Shown: positions 6,650 through 23,847, counted from the stretch's first letter. The stretch is 64,000 nucleotides of DNA from an uncultured Candidatus Saccharibacteria bacterium (GCA_964630525.1 CAZVUY010000003.1:48699-112698), one strand, 5' to 3'. Numbers and translations are program-made. The notes: generated by a model from the sequence alone, not told the origin.

Positions 6650-7939
6650 ATGGCAAGTTCGAGGTTACCAAGTGTACTCATGTTTGGGTGGGAGTTCCCA
6701 CCTTTTAATAGTGGTGGACTTGGAGTGGCCTGTGAGGGCTTGACCAAAGCGTTGTCGGCAAGCGGGGTCGACTTGACTTTTGTGTTGCCTTTTAAAATCC
6801 CGGTGGCGGCTTCCTGGTGCCGTTTTGTTTTTGCCAATGATTCGACCACTTTTAAAAATGAGGCCCAGATCCGGACACTTTTTGCTGGTTATCAGAGTCA
6901 TTCTGATACTGTTTATACTAAAAAATATGGGTTACCAAAAAATATTTCTGGCAGTTTGGTTGAGCGGGTACGCACTTATGCTCACAGTGCACCAGCGGTG
7001 GCGGCACGAGTCGAACATTCGGTGATCCATGCCCATGATTGGCTTACTTACCCGGCCGGGATAGCTGCCAAAGAAGTTTCTGGTAAGCCGCTGGTCGCTC
7101 ATGTGCATGCGACCGAGTTTGATCGTAGTGGAGGGGACAGTGTCAACCGAGAAATTTTTGAAGTGGAGATGGAAGGTTTTCATAAAGCCGATCGGGTGGT
7201 CACTGTTTCTGGTCTTACCAGAAAAAAAGTAATTGAAAAGTACGGAGTTGCACCAGAAAAGGTGCAAGTGGTCTACAATGGAATTGAATTTGGTACTAAC
7301 CACTCTGCGATCGAGCACAATCTGGAAAAGCTTAAGAGAGAAGGTAATTCAATTGTTTTGTTTGTAGGCCGGATCACTCTCCAAAAAGGTCCGGAGTTTT
7401 TTGTTGAGATGGCCAAGCGGGTGATGAGTTATGAACCAAACACATTTTTCGTAGTTTCGGGAAGTGGAGATATGGAAGGAGAAATGATTGGAAGGGTGGC
7501 AGCGGCCGGACTTTCTCACAAATTTATATTCTGTGGTTTCTTGCGAGGAGATGAGCTTGCACGAGTTTACAAAGCAGCCGATATTTTCGTGATGCCCTCG
7601 GTTTCTGAGCCGTTCGGGTTAGTGCCACTAGAGGCAATGATTTCAGAAGTACCGGTCCTAATCTCTAAAGAATCCGGAGTGAGTGAAATATTATCGACAG
7701 CGCTCAAATCTCATTTTTGGGACATAGACGATATGGCCGACAAAGTGGTGAGTGTTTTGCGTCATCAGAAACTAAAAAAACATTTGAGTATAAATGGTCG
7801 CGAAGAAGTGAAGACTATCCACTGGAAAAAAGCTGCAGACACCTTGATCTCAGTGTATAATTCTCTAGACAATGCCTTCGGTATGCTTTTACTTCCAAGT
7901 TCACCAGCCGTTGCGGGTGCGAAAGTACCGCATTTTTGA
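6650..7939 (+). CDS. Glycosyltransferase, GT4/GT5 glycogen-synthase-like
   Basis: N-terminal FGWEFPPFNSGGLGVACEGLTKAL and C-terminal SEPFGLVPLEAM motifs. Confidence 0.7.
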   Translation: MASSRLPSVLMFGWEFPPFNSGGLGVACEGLTKALSASGVDLTFVLPFKIPVAASWCRFVFANDSTTFKNEAQIRTLFAGYQSHSDTVYTKKYGLPKNISGSLVERVRTYAHSAPAVAARVEHSVIHAHDWLTYPAGIAAKEVSGKPLVAHVHATEFDRSGGDSVNREIFEVEMEGFHKADRVVTVSGLTRKKVIEKYGVAPEKVQVVYNGIEFGTNHSAIEHNLEKLKREGNSIVLFVGRITLQKGPEFFVEMAKRVMSYEPNTFFVVSGSGDMEGEMIGRVAAAGLSHKFIFCGFLRGDELARVYKAADIFVMPSVSEPFGLVPLEAMISEVPVLISKESGVSEILSTALKSHFWDIDDMADKVVSVLRHQKLKKHLSINGREEVKTIHWKKAADTLISVYNSLDNAFGMLLLPSSPAVAGAKVPHF

Positions 7940-15902: not shown

Positions 15903-15976
15903 TGCCGGGTCGTCTAATGGTAGGACATCAGGTTTTGGTCCTGAGTATCGGGGTTCGAGTCCCTGCCCGGCAGCCA
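15903..15976 (+). tRNA. tRNA-Gln (UUG), CCA encoded
   Basis: U1-A72 acceptor pair, anticodon loop UUUUGGU, T-loop UUCGAGU, terminal CCA. Confidence 0.8.
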
Positions 15977-17596: not shown

Positions 17597-18165
17597 TCAA
17601 ATACACTTTCAACATCAATGAGGAAATTGCTCGGTGGGTTACCGAGGTGTACGTACGCGATAATAAAAATCTAGATTGGTGGGTAGCTTTTACTAATCCT
17701 ATTGCTGGTCCTTGGAAGAAAATAACAGCACTAAACGGAGACGGAGTTCCTGTTGAGATTTACCGATTCGAAAGAGAGGGAGAAAGGCCGGATCTTATTT
17801 TGGTCAATGACACGCATAAGACAATACTAATTATCGAGGCAAAAGATTTTGTTCAGAAATTAGTAGCTGGTGAGCAAATGCGTAAATCTGCCCGTGTTAT
17901 TAAAGAAATTACTTCTATACTTAGAAATTGCGGTAATGAACATTGGGTATCACGTAAGGATTATAAAATTATTCCTTCGTTCTTATGGTATACAGATAAA
18001 CAAGATCTGATTAAGCCAGAGGATGAGTTGGTACGAGTAACTTATAAAACAGTAGCGGATGATGATTCTGAACTATTGAATATAGTGATCACAAAAGGTG
18101 AATCAGGAGATCTAAAGAACAACTTTGTCTACAATTCACAGATCACTGATGATCTAACTGTTTAA
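17593..18165 (+). CDS. PD-(D/E)xK nuclease-fold protein (candidate restriction endonuclease subunit)
   Basis: RPDLILVND...ILIIEAKD motif. Converges on the methyltransferase genes. Confidence 0.5.
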   Translation: MIKYTFNINEEIARWVTEVYVRDNKNLDWWVAFTNPIAGPWKKITALNGDGVPVEIYRFEREGERPDLILVNDTHKTILIIEAKDFVQKLVAGEQMRKSARVIKEITSILRNCGNEHWVSRKDYKIIPSFLWYTDKQDLIKPEDELVRVTYKTVADDDSELLNIVITKGESGDLKNNFVYNSQITDDLTV

Positions 18166-20030
18166 AATAAAGTGGAAGTTCTGGTAATTCTTTGGAGATA
18201 GGCGTAATTTTTGTCGAATAAGACCGTGTGCTTCAATAGGTTTTTTACTTCTCCCAATGAAGGTGAACCGATATCAAAAGTAGACTCAAGTATAGCTTCA
18301 TAAAGTTCCTTTATACTCTTTTTACCATCTCGCAAAAGATCCACAGCCACATTTGCAACATATTCCTCAATCTTTTTCGCGTTCTCTATTTCTCCAAGAA
18401 ACTCATCTCTAAGTTGGTAATAATCCTTATCACTTGTCGCAATCGGAATAATTACTTCATTTATTTTTCCGAGAGTGAGTGTATTCATACCCTCATTTAG
18501 GATGCATAGGATGATCATCCTATGCACAAGGTTTTTTGGAGCGGTCCCTCCGCGACTCAGTAAAACCTTTTTAGCTATTTCGGTTAGGTGAAAAAGATCC
18601 TGCTTCTTTTTTGGGGGATGCACTTTCTTTTCAAATACACAGTAGTAGTCTCCCACATAGCTTGTGTTTGAAGCCGTCTGTGATTTTGATGATACCACTG
18701 CAGGAATTTGATATTTTGCCTCAGTACAAACGAAAGATTTTTCTGAGAAAGACTCAAGAACGATCTTCCATGCACGGGGATCTAGATTATTGAAAGTCAT
18801 AATAATTTTTCCTCCTTTTTTCAGCTTGCGCTGAAATAGATCCACGATAATTGCTATATCTGCTCCGTACTTATCCCAGGAGCTTACGTATTCTTTTCTG
18901 TCAGAAACGATAATTTCGTCATCGTAGGAAACTCTTTTCTTGAGGAAGCCGTTCCAAATGGCAGAGAATTCTACATACGGAACATTATCTCCGTAAGGTG
19001 GATCAAAGAAAATACCATCGATGCTTTCATCCTCAAATTCCTCTAGCCCATTCTGAGCAGGTTTTAAATCAATTTTGGATGTCGCACCTGTATTTTTGTA
19101 ACTACTTGCGAGAGCCTCAAGTCCTTTAACAAATTTTTTGTATCTAGCCTGTAGGTGAATCACTGGATTTGTTTCAAGGTGTAATGGAGCAATCCAAAAA
19201 CCTGGGATAGTCCATGCAGGCCCGCCTGTACTCAGGTTATTTCTGTAAGGTATAAGTCGTGACGATTGCGCAACGGAAGATGTTAAAAGTAAGAGTGCAG
19301 CATTTCTAATAGAATCTTTTTTTATCTTATGGGCTTTATCGAAGAGTTGGGAAAGTACATAAAATGCTCTAGGGGTGAACAGGTCAGAAAGTTGCATTCC
19401 CGGAAAAGCCAGAATTCTACGATTAATCAATAAATTTTCACTGTCTATCCTGGGAATTTTCTGAATAATAGATTCCTGTTTTTCAATAGCCTTTTTATCT
19501 ATATAAACTTCATTATCACGAGTGATAATTTTTACGATCCTAGTGCCTGTAAACTTTTCAAAATTAAAATACAGTCTTTCGTCACATTTCGCGCAGTGGT
19601 ATTTAGACCCTTTTTTTATTGCATTATCAATTGATCCAATGGTGTTGCAAGAAGGACACTCTGATTCCATGCGATGCACTAAGTACCGGACGTCCTTTCC
19701 ATCGAGGGTATAGAGTTCCTTAAAAGAATCCGCAAACGAAATCAGGTTCTCAATTTCGTGATTAAATTCCTCCACAGTAGGGGGATTAACTGTGACTTCA
19801 GAAAGTAGTTGAGCTAACGGATTTATGTCGAAACCCCTAGAATTAATCCCCAGCTTTTTTGCCTCAGCCAAGAAAACTCCACTTCCACAAAAAGGATCTA
19901 CTACTAAATCACCAGGCTTAAAATGTGACCTTATATATCCATGTAGAATATTTGAAGGCTTTCGTGCCCAGTACTTATGAATTAGGTATTCATTGGGATG
20001 GGTCTCAGCCATCAGTGCTCTTGAGCTCAT
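18162..20030 (-). CDS. DNA methyltransferase (N6-adenine/N4-cytosine type)
   Basis: Motif I VVDPFCGSG and motif IV IFFDPPYG with a long intervening region. Confidence 0.75.
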   Translation of the reverse strand: MSSRALMAETHPNEYLIHKYWARKPSNILHGYIRSHFKPGDLVVDPFCGSGVFLAEAKKLGINSRGFDINPLAQLLSEVTVNPPTVEEFNHEIENLISFADSFKELYTLDGKDVRYLVHRMESECPSCNTIGSIDNAIKKGSKYHCAKCDERLYFNFEKFTGTRIVKIITRDNEVYIDKKAIEKQESIIQKIPRIDSENLLINRRILAFPGMQLSDLFTPRAFYVLSQLFDKAHKIKKDSIRNAALLLLTSSVAQSSRLIPYRNNLSTGGPAWTIPGFWIAPLHLETNPVIHLQARYKKFVKGLEALASSYKNTGATSKIDLKPAQNGLEEFEDESIDGIFFDPPYGDNVPYVEFSAIWNGFLKKRVSYDDEIIVSDRKEYVSSWDKYGADIAIIVDLFQRKLKKGGKIIMTFNNLDPRAWKIVLESFSEKSFVCTEAKYQIPAVVSSKSQTASNTSYVGDYYCVFEKKVHPPKKKQDLFHLTEIAKKVLLSRGGTAPKNLVHRMIILCILNEGMNTLTLGKINEVIIPIATSDKDYYQLRDEFLGEIENAKKIEEYVANVAVDLLRDGKKSIKELYEAILESTFDIGSPSLGEVKNLLKHTVLFDKNYAYLQRITRTSTLF

Positions 20031-21271
20031 GTTTTCTTAAGAATTACCATTAGGTCACAAAGGTTAATTCCAACGTCTCCACCTTTTCTTCGTTGGCTTG
20101 CAGCCCATGAAGCCTCAGTGAACTTAGGTATTCTGAGAGCTACTTTTTCCACATTATATACATCTTTCAATCTGTGGATTAGATTATGTGTGACAGGTAT
20201 ATATTGACCTTTGATAACAGTGTCGCCAATCATTAAGACAACTCTACCATCAGACTCTAAGTAGCCGTTTAGGTTTCGAAGCCCGTTCTCCATATCATTA
20301 AGATATTCCTCAACTTTTTCTGGCTTTCCAACTTTAAATGCTTCTCTAATTTCACCTTTTCGAATAGATGCATGATCTATATCAAGCCAGGCCAGTTCAA
20401 GTGAATTAACTCCACTGTATTTATATGAATTAAAGTAAGGTGGATGACAGATAATTAATTTAGCAACCTGGTCCTTGCTATTTGGCGTATCAAATATAGA
20501 TCGAACTTCAATATTAATAACCGACTTCCTGGTTTTGGGTAGTTCAGGGGCTGACTCCGCAATTTCTAATGCTTTTTTAAGAAAGAAAGGGAAGGCATCC
20601 TTTTCAGCCGTCTCCACATCTAGAAAAAGTCTCCCTTGTTGTGTTGTCGCCCGCGAAACCCTACGGACGATACCCAAGAAAGCAACCATTAAAGCGTCTT
20701 TAATTTCAGAAGAGTAACTCAGATTCTTAACCCCTGTTCGAATCTTTTCAAGAGAAATAATTGTTTCTGGTAGAAACCAATGATCGGGGTTTCTTAGTCC
20801 CGTTAAAACAGGTTTTTTTATCCTTTTTGAATTTGTATAAAAATCTCTTACTTCATTGAGAGCTTGGAGATAGTCTTCCTTGTCAATCTTTGTAGTTTTA
20901 ACTCGTGATATCAGTACAGACAGAGGGTTGATATCGAAGCAAGAAGCCTGTCTCTTTAATAAGAGGGCTTCTAGTGCTGTGGTTCCACTACCACACATGG
21001 GATCAATAACCAAATCATTTTCCTTCGTGTATTCTTTAATTGCATGTCTTGCAATAGGAGGGGGGAATTTACCAAAATATCTGAAAATGCCATGAGATAA
21101 ATAAGACAGTGTTTTGTTTGAGGCACTAGAAGTCCAAACCTCGATATCTTTTGAAAGTTCCTTGATTCTGCTCCTATTTATTAAATCAGCATACTTTTCC
21201 TGAATTTCGTGGCTTGAAAAATCAACAATTTCAAGTTCTGGGATATTATCTTTTACGTTATAGATAGACAT
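20027..21271 (-). CDS. DNA methyltransferase (N6/N4 type), second copy
   Basis: VIDPMCGSGTT motif I and ICHPPYF motif IV. Its stop overlaps the start of the other methyltransferase gene. Confidence 0.7.
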   Translation of the reverse strand: MSIYNVKDNIPELEIVDFSSHEIQEKYADLINRSRIKELSKDIEVWTSSASNKTLSYLSHGIFRYFGKFPPPIARHAIKEYTKENDLVIDPMCGSGTTALEALLLKRQASCFDINPLSVLISRVKTTKIDKEDYLQALNEVRDFYTNSKRIKKPVLTGLRNPDHWFLPETIISLEKIRTGVKNLSYSSEIKDALMVAFLGIVRRVSRATTQQGRLFLDVETAEKDAFPFFLKKALEIAESAPELPKTRKSVINIEVRSIFDTPNSKDQVAKLIICHPPYFNSYKYSGVNSLELAWLDIDHASIRKGEIREAFKVGKPEKVEEYLNDMENGLRNLNGYLESDGRVVLMIGDTVIKGQYIPVTHNLIHRLKDVYNVEKVALRIPKFTEASWAASQRRKGGDVGINLCDLMVILKKT

Positions 21272-21321
21272 CAGCAATGTATATAGAATATGTTTGCAAT
21301 GTAATTATATCAGTAAAGTCT

Positions 21322-22638
21322 TTAATTTAACGATACCCGCTTGTTGATAAGTGTAATTTTCCCCCTTAAACAGCCGAGCAATTCTCTTTTTTCAAAATCT
21401 TTCCCTTCTCTAAGAATATATTTAGCATAATTACGAATATCTATTTCAGGTATATCAGGCCTTTCCCTGTTACCTAGTAGTACCCTTTGAAATTTTTTAT
21501 ACCTCTCCACTTCTTCTTTTATCTTCTTATTTATGCCGAGTTCGTCTATCTCGATCTGATCAATTAATTTCTCAAACTGAGTGATTAGATCATTCTCGTT
21601 GATATAGTTACCCTTACAATCCACCCCTTTACTCCTTGAACATCCGTAGTAGACATGTCTGTTCACGCTTCCACTCTTTAGCTTCTTAAATTTCTCCTCT
21701 GCTGTTATTCCGGAGCTGCATAGCCCACAAACCATCAACTTGGTAAAAGCAAACTCCTTATTTGAACCTCTAACGTAATCTATTCGCATATTTTCTTGCA
21801 CCATATCAAACAATTCTTTCGTTATGATAGGTTCGTGCTTGCCCTTATACCAATTACCGCTTTTTGTTGGAAACTCAAATGTGCCGTAATAGAAGTGATT
21901 GCATAATATCCGATGAACATTTCCTATGCTTAGGTTTTTATTTCCATTGGCTGTCCTAAAATTAAGATCAAATTTAAGCCAATTATAAATTTTCCTTGTT
22001 GACCACTTTTCGTAGGCTGCTTTTTCAAACATTTTCTTAATAATTGGCGCTCTCTCTGGATCTATCATCACATATCCCTTTCTATCGATTCTCTTTTCCG
22101 TAAGGTAGCCAGTCGGTGCAACAGATGGCCACAATCCCATTTCTACTCTAGCTCTCAACCCTCGTTTTACGTTTATGCTTTTATTATCGTTTTCAAGTTT
22201 TGCCTGAGAACATAGAATCATTAGTAGAAATTTTTCGCTCGGAGTGTTCGTAAAGGTTTGGCCGTAGGTTCTAATTTGTGTCAGTTTTTTCTCATCCATT
22301 AAATCAACAATTGATCCCAGATCTCCGGCGTTTCTAGACAATCTATCTGGATGCCAAACTAGTATTCCGTTGAATCTATCTCTCCTTAGATCCTCAAGAA
22401 TCTCTTTAAATACTGGCCGTTGCCCTGAATCCTTGGCAGAATGGGCTTCTCGTCGTATGTCTACAATCTCAAGGCTTTCTCGCTCAGCTATAGCGAGCAT
22501 TTCTTTAACCTGAGACTCAATTGATAAGGCCTGCTTTTCATCTTGTTCTGTTGATTTACGAGCATATAAGCAATACCTAACTTTTATTACTGGTATTGGT
22601 AATGGATTGCCGATTAGGGCAGTTGCTTGCGTTTCCAT
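21322..22638 (-). CDS. Large serine recombinase (integrase/transposase type)
   Basis: N-terminal YARKSTEQDEKQALSIESQ serine catalytic domain, a recombinase domain and a C-terminal Cys-rich zinc ribbon. ATG at 22638. Confidence 0.8.
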   Translation of the reverse strand: METQATALIGNPLPIPVIKVRYCLYARKSTEQDEKQALSIESQVKEMLAIAERESLEIVDIRREAHSAKDSGQRPVFKEILEDLRRDRFNGILVWHPDRLSRNAGDLGSIVDLMDEKKLTQIRTYGQTFTNTPSEKFLLMILCSQAKLENDNKSINVKRGLRARVEMGLWPSVAPTGYLTEKRIDRKGYVMIDPERAPIIKKMFEKAAYEKWSTRKIYNWLKFDLNFRTANGNKNLSIGNVHRILCNHFYYGTFEFPTKSGNWYKGKHEPIITKELFDMVQENMRIDYVRGSNKEFAFTKLMVCGLCSSGITAEEKFKKLKSGSVNRHVYYGCSRSKGVDCKGNYINENDLITQFEKLIDQIEIDELGINKKIKEEVERYKKFQRVLLGNRERPDIPEIDIRNYAKYILREGKDFEKRELLGCLRGKITLINKRVSLN

Positions 22639-22968
22639 GTATATATTGATGACAGACCCCAAAACCCTGCATAGCTATGCAGAACTAAGAAAACGTCGCA
22701 TACTCGCGTTTAGGGCTTAGCAAAAGCTCTGTAGTGCGATAGATTCAAATGGATAGCCGTAAGTGCTATCATGTAAATACAACTGAATATTGGCCCGTAA
22801 AGGGCAGGACCTAAACCCGAAAGGGCATGGTCCCAAATTCGCAAGCAACATAGAGAACCCGTCATTAGGGCGTTGCTTGCGTTACTAGGGGAAACCCTAG
22901 TAGAGGAGTCCGCGAGGCCCTTCCTAGTGGCGGGCTTTCTGTTTCTATTAAAAACGCAAGCAACAAAC

Positions 22969-23847
22969 ATGATTAAGAAAATATTACTGGGGCTAATTGG
23001 AGGCTTTGTCCTACTCGTATGGATCGGATCAATGCTTCCAGATGTCCCAAGGGAGGAAGTAAGCCAAGATAAAGTTTCTGTCTCATCTGATGTTCAAGAA
23101 GCAACTGCTCCTCAAATATCAATACAAGAAACTAGTTCAGTTACGAATCAATCTCCTACTACTGAAACCGCAACCAAGTCAGTCCAAACGACTCAATCAA
23201 GTCCCACTACAGCCCCGCAATACACATATTATTCAGTAACTGATGTGGTAGACGGAGATACGGTCAAAGTGAATATAAATGGAACTGTAACAACTCTTCG
23301 ATTGATTGGAATGGATACGCCAGAGACTGTTGATCCCAGAAAACCAGTTCAATGCTTTGGTAAAGAAGCATCTAACAAAGCAAAAGAATTACTTTCAGGA
23401 AAGAAAGTAAGACTTGAGATGGATCCAAGCCAAGGAACTCTCGATACTTATGGCAGAACTCTTGCTTATATCTACCGAGAAGACGGTTTGTTCTTTAACA
23501 AATACATGATTGAGCAGGGGTATGCCCACGAGTATACCTACCGAACTCCATACAAATACCAGGCTGAATTTAAAACTGCTCAAAAGACAGCTCAAACCAA
23601 TCAGGCGGGACTGTGGTCTCCAAGTACCTGTAACGGAGATACGACCTCCTCTTCCGAAACTGTCCCAGCCACTACTTCATCAGGTGGAAAGTTCTACACC
23701 TCATCACACTACAGTGCGAAATATTACTATCCAGAGGCATGTAATGGTTGGGAAAGTCTAAGTCCAACTTATCTCAAATCATTCGATACCCTAGAAGCTT
23801 TATTGGCTTCTTATCCTTCGAGAACTAAGAGCCCACAGTGTCAGTAG
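22969..23847 (+). CDS. Membrane-anchored thermonuclease (SNase family)
   Basis: N-terminal TM helix, a Ser/Thr-rich linker, then an SNase core LIGMDTPETV...GRTLAYIY. Confidence 0.75.
   Translation: MIKKILLGLIGGFVLLVWIGSMLPDVPREEVSQDKVSVSSDVQEATAPQISIQETSSVTNQSPTTETATKSVQTTQSSPTTAPQYTYYSVTDVVDGDTVKVNINGTVTTLRLIGMDTPETVDPRKPVQCFGKEASNKAKELLSGKKVRLEMDPSQGTLDTYGRTLAYIYREDGLFFNKYMIEQGYAHEYTYRTPYKYQAEFKTAQKTAQTNQAGLWSPSTCNGDTTSSSETVPATTSSGGKFYTSSHYSAKYYYPEACNGWESLSPTYLKSFDTLEALLASYPSRTKSPQCQ

Follow-up and report, generated by a model that had tools for sequence, protein, structure and literature searches.

The locus analysed here lies in a stretch of 64,000 nucleotides (nt) from an uncultured Candidatus Saccharibacteria bacterium (GCA_964630525.1 CAZVUY010000003.1:48699-112698), which is called the window below and whose positions are counted from its first letter. 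The window is a piece of bacterial (Patescibacteria) chromosome, which encodes SecA, D-Ala-D-Ala ligase, DnaX, BipA, YchF and LeuRS, with host genes on both sides of an island of lower G+C content. In this island, the gene of a large serine recombinase (integrase) and the gene of a staphylococcal-nuclease-like protein are divergently arranged. The spacer between them is the gene for a LOOT RNA (Rfam RF03000), a known structured RNA family, of which the window copy is an additional member. An earlier note on this DNA had described the spacer as a hairpin-dense region of 306 bp. The region is real, but it is about 330 bp long, since the recombinase most likely starts at ATG 22638 and not at TTG 22662; the N-terminus MET... 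and a “tccat” motif are kept in the alignment of recombinase-adjacent relatives.

We searched the region against the Rfam covariance models with cmscan, and it turned out that the LOOT model is matched over its full length (model positions 1-121 of 121) with 63.2 bits, where the gathering score is 46.4 (E = 1.6e-9). A permissive cmscan of 22300-23300 (E up to 10) gave only chance-level matches to Rfam families besides LOOT. Every defining feature of the family that was tested is found in the window RNA. P1, an A-rich linker, a long P2, an 8-bp P3 with GAAA loop and a P4 with GNRA loop follow each other, the linkers (CCUAAAC, GCAUGG, the A-rich one and GU before P3) are all present, and the tetraloops are GAAA in P1, GAAA in P3 and GCGA in P4. 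The GNRA loops exist on the + strand only, and some non-canonical pairs occur in upper P2 and in P4 of the cmscan alignment. The hairpins listed in the earlier note are thus explained to a large extent: CCC-GAAA-GGG (22816-22825) is the inner stem of P1, the perfect 10-bp inverted repeat CGCAAGCAAC/GTTGCTTGCG is the lower stem of P2, and CTAGGG-GAAA-CCCTAG (TACTAGGG-GAAA-CCCTAGTA) is P3, so that its suggestion of a small structured RNA was correct. A further hairpin, GCCC-GUAAA-GGGC, is present as well. The density of hairpins also exceeds chance, because the + strand RNA of 22779-22990 has a folding z of -4.0, and none of 200 shuffled sequences reaches its stability.

LOOT is a presumed small RNA (sRNA), whose name comes from “lots of tetraloops”, and Rfam likewise classes it as sRNA. 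To our knowledge, it was formerly known from environmental sequences only, without host or function, and we found no papers on its host, context or function in the searchable literature. The family originates from the 2017 Weinberg/Breaker survey (Weinberg et al. 2017, Nucleic Acids Res 45:10811, PMC5737381), and the main text of that paper contains no discussion of LOOT.

Relatives were collected with IUPAC patterns derived from the conserved LOOT linkers, which were run on three collections (viral, metagenome and genome) and followed by a filter for P3 pairing. The metagenome and genome scans gave at least 120 matches each, and all family frequencies below refer to this sample. The first viral pattern was too loose (at least 120 matches, almost all of them chance), and a stricter pattern gave 8 true LOOTs in 49 matches. 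In total, at least 245 LOOT loci pass the filter, so P3 is paired in them by construction, and all of the 16 pattern-derived relatives checked with Rfam are RF03000 (56-94 bits). Most of the genome matches listed (90 of 120) have Patescibacteria labels, namely 33 Saccharibacteria and 57 other lineages (Paceibacterota/Parcubacteria, Microgenomates, etc.), 13 are unclassified “bacterium”, and the remainder carry odd labels, mostly from one automated batch. The closest locus among the matches listed, L389, is in a Saccharibacteria genome. Besides, three assemblies contain two LOOT contigs each (L300 and L322, L356 and L359, L296 and L387), which is more in line with a mobile element than with a housekeeping gene and indicates that LOOT can be multi-copy. 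In annotated phage records, the only similar DNA is a 58-bp integrase fragment. Another structured-looking element is shared by three viral contigs (L064 at about 6700-6760 on the - strand, L075, and L084 at about 1263-1400); it begins like LOOT P1 (CCTAAsC-hairpin-GCATGG), continues with YGGTAAAGCGACACGAGC and several hairpins, and fails the LOOT filters.

To place the family in its genomic context, we summarized the genes around LOOT. An integrase homologue is located within 4 kb of LOOT in 79 of 245 loci (among the matches listed). Most of these integrases (57 of 79) are upstream and divergent, about 20 of them at a distance of 90-235 nt as in the window, while 5 are upstream on the same strand with their ends about 47 nt 5' of LOOT, 17 are downstream on the same strand, and a convergent arrangement was found in none of the 79. 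Clustering of all Open Reading Frames (ORFs) within 3.5 kb of LOOT ranked integrase first (49 loci), followed by a small-terminase-like helix-turn-helix (HTH) protein (27), ParB/methylase (26), DUF5659 (20) and large terminase (19; phrog_38, E = 1e-73); excisionase-like HTH_17 proteins occur in 14 loci and XRE regulators in 10. These neighbours indicate that LOOT belongs to temperate tailed phages of Patescibacteria, where it sits between the integration and packaging modules. In this way the Rfam family is placed in Patescibacteria genomes and temperate-phage regions. The DUF5659 protein (about 85 aa), fourth in the ranking, is usually upstream and divergent, for instance about 1 kb upstream of LOOT in L328.

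The other side of LOOT is very different in its gene content. In 162 of 213 loci, the nearest ORF downstream has the same orientation as LOOT, and its start is usually 25-100 nt past P3. The downstream proteins form 143 clusters among 219 and have unrelated functions, such as zinc-ribbon membrane proteins, nucleases, a trypsin-like protease, methyltransferases and many small membrane proteins. This extreme diversity is the pattern of a cargo or “moron” slot. The nuclease of the window is such a cargo gene 3' of LOOT, with LOOT between it and the serine integrase.

The LOOT RNA itself appears to be larger than the 121-position Rfam model, since a leader with promoter, an additional helix and a 3' tail can be added to it. 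The helix test was run on 70 diverse loci, aligned with MAFFT without structural information (alignment A1). In this alignment, P4 is followed by a conserved tail, CUGGCGGCGGGCUUUGUGUUU, whose consensus CTGGCGGCGGGCTTTGTGTTT is present in nearly all 70 sequences. Twelve tail positions pair with 12 positions in the apical 5' part of P2 (the “PK” helix), with 87% of the cells paired and 129 compensatory cells. Both sides change in 12 of 12 pairs (one column has GC in 30, CG in 22, UG in 10 and AU in 5 sequences), and many U-G pairs are kept, which points, like the GNRA loops, to an RNA read from the + strand. None of 500 shuffles reaches the observed level, and slid controls give about 50%. The PK helix and the lower P2 stem would combine into an H-type pseudoknot, one loop of which holds P3 and P4. 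P2 is missing from the minimum free energy fold of the whole leader, as the program is unable to model pseudoknots and favours the long-range helix instead. Some loci can form another hairpin with the start of the tail (P5), which is only moderately enriched and practically absent from the window.

The 3' strand of the PK helix also bears on where the RNA ends. In the window, this strand (GGCGGGC) is followed by UUUCUGUUUCU, and its partner is about 65 nt upstream in the P2 loop. The U-rich stretch near 22940-22949 is terminator-like and probably marks the 3' end of a short RNA. A simple terminator scan found none here; the PK helix running into the U tract resembles a branched terminator.

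The relationship between P2 and the downstream gene gives a lead to a function. The P2 arms vary between loci, yet they remain complementary. The earlier note had recognized a third, direct copy of the 10-mer (the P2 5' arm in our model) just before the nuclease start, and this copy (22955-22964) can be extended to the 13 nt of AAACGCAAGCAAC, which end 4 nt ahead of the nuclease ATG. It had overlooked a fourth copy, GTTGCTTGCGTTT, which is AAACGCAAGCAAC on the - strand and is contained in the recombinase gene (mRNA strand AUG GAA ACG CAA GCA AC). The exact 10-mer occurs only four times in the 64 kb, all inside 343 bp.

We then searched the 500-nt flanks of the family for exact matches of at least 10 nt to LOOT, and most of them (72 of 105) are downstream copies of the P2 5' arm. 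Copies of other LOOT parts show no pattern in the flanks (13 of 85 downstream matches, at scattered positions). Complementarity to the P2 3' arm of at least 10 of 12 Watson-Crick pairs is found 3' of P3 in 33 of 232 loci, compared with 5 of 232 in the reversed control, and 31 of the 33 sites are 49-70 nt past P3 (the two outliers are at 82 and 106 nt). In a permutation test, matches of at least 8 nt to the own arm occur in 37 of 228 loci (16%), but in 0.8% with the arms of other loci. The position is also well defined, because in 25 of the 28 loci that have both a copy and an ORF that can be called, the copy ends 0-5 nt ahead of an ATG. Every copy is preceded by an A-rich run that resembles the linker before P2, and Shine-Dalgarno-like ends are included in the copy in some loci. 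The copies are unrelated in sequence across loci (CCGCTACAGTG, CTGTTCAGGT, CCTACTAGAGTG, CCATACCTACA, CGCGACGAAC, CCACGTGTATA and others). For example, homologous nuclease cargo genes have CGCAAGCAAC in the window and in L389 but CCGCTACAGTG in L174, each copy fitting its own P2, and all 4 of 4 methyltransferase cargo genes carry a copy that is matched to their own P2. It demonstrates that the translation-initiation region of the cargo gene co-evolves with P2. The features of the locus are collected in Table 1.

Table 1. Features of the LOOT locus, with positions counted from the first letter of the window
Feature	Position	Strand	Remark
Large serine recombinase (integrase) gene	21322-22638	-	start ATG 22638 (most likely); Pfam Resolvase, Recombinase, Zn_ribbon_recom; PHROG phrog_95, E = 8e-65
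Extra P2 5' arm copy AAACGCAAGCAAC	22622-22634	-	recombinase codons 2-6; 13-bp perfect inverted repeat with 22952-22964
16-bp perfect palindrome CTGCATAGCTATGCAG	22667-22682		about 28 nt upstream of recombinase ATG; single copy in window
Conserved blocks CGTCGCATACTCGC and CTTAGCAAAA...GCGATAGATT	22694-22746		alignment of recombinase-adjacent relatives
Sigma-70-like putative LOOT promoter TTCAAA-17 nt-TATCAT, upstream TG	22744-22772	+	promoter scan; TATCAT = 22767-22772
Inverted repeat GATAGC-N7-GCTATC	22752-22770	+	3' arm overlaps LOOT -10 box
Conserved 5' leader ACAACTGAATA, putative LOOT transcription start	22779-22789	+	ACAAYY motif
P0 hairpin GCCC-GUAAA-GGGC	22793-22805	+	subfamily-specific insertion 5' of Rfam model
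LOOT core P1-P4	22808-22923	+	P1 22808-22832 (CCUAAAC...GCAUGG); P2 arms 22840-22849 and 22872-22881
“PK” helix 5' strand AGAGAACCCGUC	22852-22863	+	apical part of P2; partner 22929-22940
LOOT P3 (GAAA loop)	22883-22902	+	cmscan alignment
LOOT P4 (GCGA loop)	22903-22923	+	cmscan alignment
3' tail beyond Rfam model	22929-22949	+	GGCGGGCUUUCU (22929-22940) = PK 3' strand; U-rich UUUCUGUUUCUAUU (22936-22949)
Linker + P2 5' arm copy AAACGCAAGCAAC	22952-22964	+	in nuclease translation-initiation region; 12 bp complementary to P2 3' arm
Staphylococcal-nuclease-like protein, membrane-anchored or secreted, N-terminal hydrophobic segment	22969-23847	+	Pfam SNase, E = 1.6e-25

Based on these results, we consider it fairly probable that LOOT, a + strand gene of a phage element, acts as a two-state riboregulator of the adjacent cargo gene. 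The P2 3' strand GUUGCUUGCGUU is complementary to the P2 5' strand and to the identical copy over the nuclease initiation region, and with two identical partners it could take part in two mutually exclusive helices. When P2 and the pseudoknot are formed, the nuclease initiation region would be free, and when the P2 3' strand is on the initiation region, the nuclease start would be sequestered. This pairing might take place in cis, within a read-through transcript, or in trans, between the terminated short RNA and a separately initiated mRNA. The predicted energies are -17.6 kcal/mol for P2 (10 bp) and -20.5 kcal/mol for the P2 3' strand with the nuclease initiation region (12 bp). Constrained folds of 22779-22990 have -69.5 kcal/mol with P2 and -71.3 kcal/mol with the alternative helix, and from these near-equal values the read-through transcript is predicted to be close to bistable. 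In this locus, codons 2-7 of the integrase mRNA would be another possible partner of the P2 3' strand; the predicted duplex between the integrase-start copy and the P2 3' region of LOOT has 16 bp with one bulge (-25.2 kcal/mol).

Several points weigh against this two-state model. The start-site copy is found in only about 15% of loci, so gating of a cargo start cannot be the core function of the LOOT family and would be an accessory use. Since P2 is a stable, perfect 10-bp helix, it is not obvious that its 3' strand would be available to a partner in trans. Most transcripts may end at the U-rich tail, ahead of the nuclease gene, and an A/T-rich TATTAA just 5' of the copy could be a separate promoter, giving a transcript without part of the copy. 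The local hairpin of upper P2 in the Rfam model shares nucleotides with the PK helix and competes with it; its support in the 70-locus alignment is weak (57% paired), which is partly an alignment artefact, and it may coexist or alternate with the PK helix, or be of secondary importance. As for the integrase, the copy at its start is peculiar to this window, with a degenerate form in L389, and the own and permuted distributions are the same family-wide.

The copies could also be explained without regulation. It is possible, though on the unlikely side, that LOOT is a stand-alone sRNA with its end at the U-rich tail and a different role, for instance with a protein partner or in an RNA assembly, and with the P2-arm copy as a non-regulatory feature, e.g. 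a by-product of cargo recombination. The Rfam class, the terminator-like order of tail helix and U's and the lack of a copy in about 85% of loci would agree with it, and the 143 clusters among 219 downstream proteins suggest frequent gene replacement beside a constant module. A recombination scar, however, is not expected to track the locus-specific P2 in many unrelated versions, nor to lie at a fixed 0-5 nt from the start codon with Shine-Dalgarno-like ends in some loci, and homologous cargo genes hold different copies that fit their own P2. For the core of the LOOT family, a stand-alone sRNA with another function is quite possible and compatible with what we found.

Another explanation, which we regard as quite improbable, is that LOOT is a cis-acting sensor (riboswitch or attenuator), in which the pseudoknot binds a ligand or protein, the U-rich tail is a regulated terminator and the copy is one expression platform. 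The same-strand ORF 25-100 nt downstream in most loci is in favour of it, together with the alternative partners of both strands (the P2 apical strand pairs with the local 3' strand or the tail, and the P2 3' arm with the 5' arm or the copy) and the additional tail hairpin of some loci. Its weak side is the downstream genes: they have no pathway or function in common, in contrast to the genes behind metabolite riboswitches. Besides, about a quarter of loci have no same-strand downstream gene, and no ligand candidate is known.

The repeats could finally act at the DNA level, where the CGCAAGCAAC copies and/or the palindrome would be protein sites (repressor operators or an attachment site of the integrase) or would delimit an invertible segment. 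The earlier note had proposed a repressor operator array or the recombination site of the recombinase here, and the adjacent serine recombinase gene and the gene of a CI-like S24 repressor 3 kb away are in favour of such ideas. Its perfect 16-bp palindrome is indeed present, and four relatives retain part of this block. In the alignment of recombinase-adjacent relatives, L389, L312 and L133 share the right half GCTATGCAGA, but changes in the left half (GCAAAG or GTAAAG in L312 and L133) are not compensated, and perfect symmetry is kept only in the closest relative, L389. No further copy of the palindrome exists in the 64 kb at up to 3 mismatches and half-site matches are at chance level, so an operator array is not supported. 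The 10-mers are explained by RNA pairing, because they shift in sequence between loci in step with P2; the P2 arms are a helix of an RNA defined by a covariance model, and they differ freely among loci with similar integrases, which a protein-binding site would not tolerate.

A recombination site in the spacer is not supported, since the adjacency of recombinase and LOOT is retained in the integrated chromosomal copy and in about 25 other loci, and the 10-mer has no distant copies that could mark the ends of an element. Homology to L389 is unbroken over 21328-23252, crosses the spacer and stops at the integrase 3' end. The survival of the adjacency after integration and the homology across the spacer indicate that the attachment site is elsewhere, probably at the integrase 3' end where the homology ends. 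An invertible segment is suggested by the perfect 13-bp inverted repeats (22622-22634 and 22952-22964), which flank a 317-bp LOOT segment, and if this segment were inverted, the nuclease ORF would be fused in frame to the recombinase ATG (METQATN-MIKK...). Such an in-frame fusion has a one-in-three chance by accident, though, and the copy inside the recombinase gene exists in this window only. As a side observation, the inversion would leave the recombinase without a start codon, and the inverted-repeat arrangement is likewise limited to this window. Altogether, we regard a DNA-level role of the repeats as very improbable. RNA-guided recombination by the integrase in the manner of bridge RNAs was also considered but finds no support, as distal copies of the variable arm, which might mark targets, are absent.

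If the two-state riboregulator is compared with known systems, LOOT seems in function to be most similar to the P4 CI RNA and the Gifsy-1 IsrK RNA. The CI RNA of satellite phage P4 (seqA, seqB, seqC) has a segment complementary to an upstream and a downstream copy in the same transcription unit, and the pairing silences the downstream genes (PMC4825925). The order of P2 5' arm, P2 3' arm and copy in LOOT follows the same logic and is covarying in about 15% of loci, but the upstream copy of LOOT is the partner strand of a helix within the RNA itself. In P4 CI the result is premature transcription termination, whereas the proposed target of LOOT would be a translation start. The cmscan of 22300-23300 (E up to 10) gave no sequence or structure homology of the window RNA to P4 CI or P1 c4, and the genes downstream of LOOT are nucleases, membrane proteins and methylases, not replication genes.

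In the case of IsrK from the Gifsy-1 prophage, a leaky terminator yields a short form, which is an sRNA, and a read-through form, which is the leader of the downstream gene, and alternative structures of near-equal energy set the access to the ribosome-binding site (PMC4825925). IsrK has no sequence relation to LOOT, and it activates, while LOOT is proposed to sequester; two isoforms are likewise predicted for LOOT. With the anti-Shine-Dalgarno and anti-anti-Shine-Dalgarno platforms of riboswitches and translational attenuators, LOOT shares the layout of three elements, in which one strand has two partners and one of these is over the translation start. The stretch that would be sequestered by LOOT, however, is not a fixed Shine-Dalgarno sequence but a locus-specific 10-14-mer that co-evolves with P2. 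Compared with metabolite riboswitches, the genes downstream of LOOT are mutually unrelated and belong to no consistent pathway. Against the Rfam model, the 5' leader with promoter, the helix between P2 loop and tail and the arm copy at the start codon are all outside the 121 positions, by which the model could be extended.

A further, more speculative possibility, which we regard as unlikely, is that LOOT is a bistable pseudoknotted decision RNA of Patescibacteria temperate phages, with the P2 3' strand as a programmable anti-start-site that gates the translation of the cargo and, here, of the integrase. If so, the folding state of the RNA would be coupled to lysogeny or excision and to functions expressed by the prophage, and LOOT would be a new class of phage riboregulators and the first functional handle on gene regulation in Patescibacteria phages. 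Patescibacteria and their phages are almost wholly uncultured, their gene regulation is essentially unknown, and LOOT is one of many orphan structured RNAs known from comparative genomics. Its spread, its context of serine-integrase prophages and terminases, the larger structure and the co-evolution of P2 and start site turn an anonymous motif into a testable hypothesis, and point to a compact, sequence-programmable module of translational control.

For the 5' part of the LOOT gene, the promoter and leader can be proposed with the help of the relatives. The motif ACAAYY occurs 8-45 nt ahead of CCTAAAC in 143 of 232 loci, compared with 6 of 232 in a control window, and a TAnnnT hexamer ends 4-10 nt (mostly 6-7 nt) upstream of ACAAYY in 100 of the 143 loci. 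We infer from this pattern that LOOT transcription starts near 22779 from the TATCAT -10 box, which gives the putative leader ACAACUGAAUA. The hairpin P0 has counterparts in L133 (GCCC-GCAA-GGGU) and L199 (TCCC-GAAA-GGGA). Further upstream, within the conserved blocks of 22694-22746, a promoter-like TTAGCA-17 nt-TAGATT can be predicted on the + strand at 22717-22745, and TTGCTA on the - strand is a possible -35 box of the recombinase. The arms GATAGC/GCTATC covary in relatives (GATAAC/GTTATC, ATAACG/CGTTAT, ATACCG/CGGTAT). This inverted repeat is upstream of the putative LOOT start and may be part of a longer transcript from TTAGCA-17-TAGATT.

The island around LOOT extends over about 16-32 kb with a G+C content of 37-40% (44-47% elsewhere) and starts directly past tRNA-Gln (15903-15976). 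Its genes include two DNA methylases, the large serine recombinase, LOOT, the staphylococcal-type nuclease, a small-terminase-like HTH protein, a ParB-methyltransferase and the CI/LexA-like S24 repressor. The window gene annotation has no phage structural genes in the island, which indicates a degenerate prophage or a small integrative element. It may also be two elements side by side, as the homology to L389 stops at the integrase 3' end. The two methylases (N6/N4 DNA methylases) are encoded by adjacent genes at 18162-21277, left of the integrase.

For the two flanking genes, some minor observations can be added. The recombinase ATG of the window has no Shine-Dalgarno-like sequence (22636-22662), where relatives have GGAG, GGTGG or GGGTG, and the mRNA start without this motif is the same one that is complementary to LOOT. 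The nuclease frame is open upstream through most of LOOT, up to TTG 22873 (a 324-aa ORF), and an antisense ORF of 86 aa spans the spacer (22710-22970). In view of the RNA structure and the conservation of ATG 22969, these two frames are most likely spurious entries of the ORF list; the nuclease N-terminus MIKKILLG... is also found in L389.

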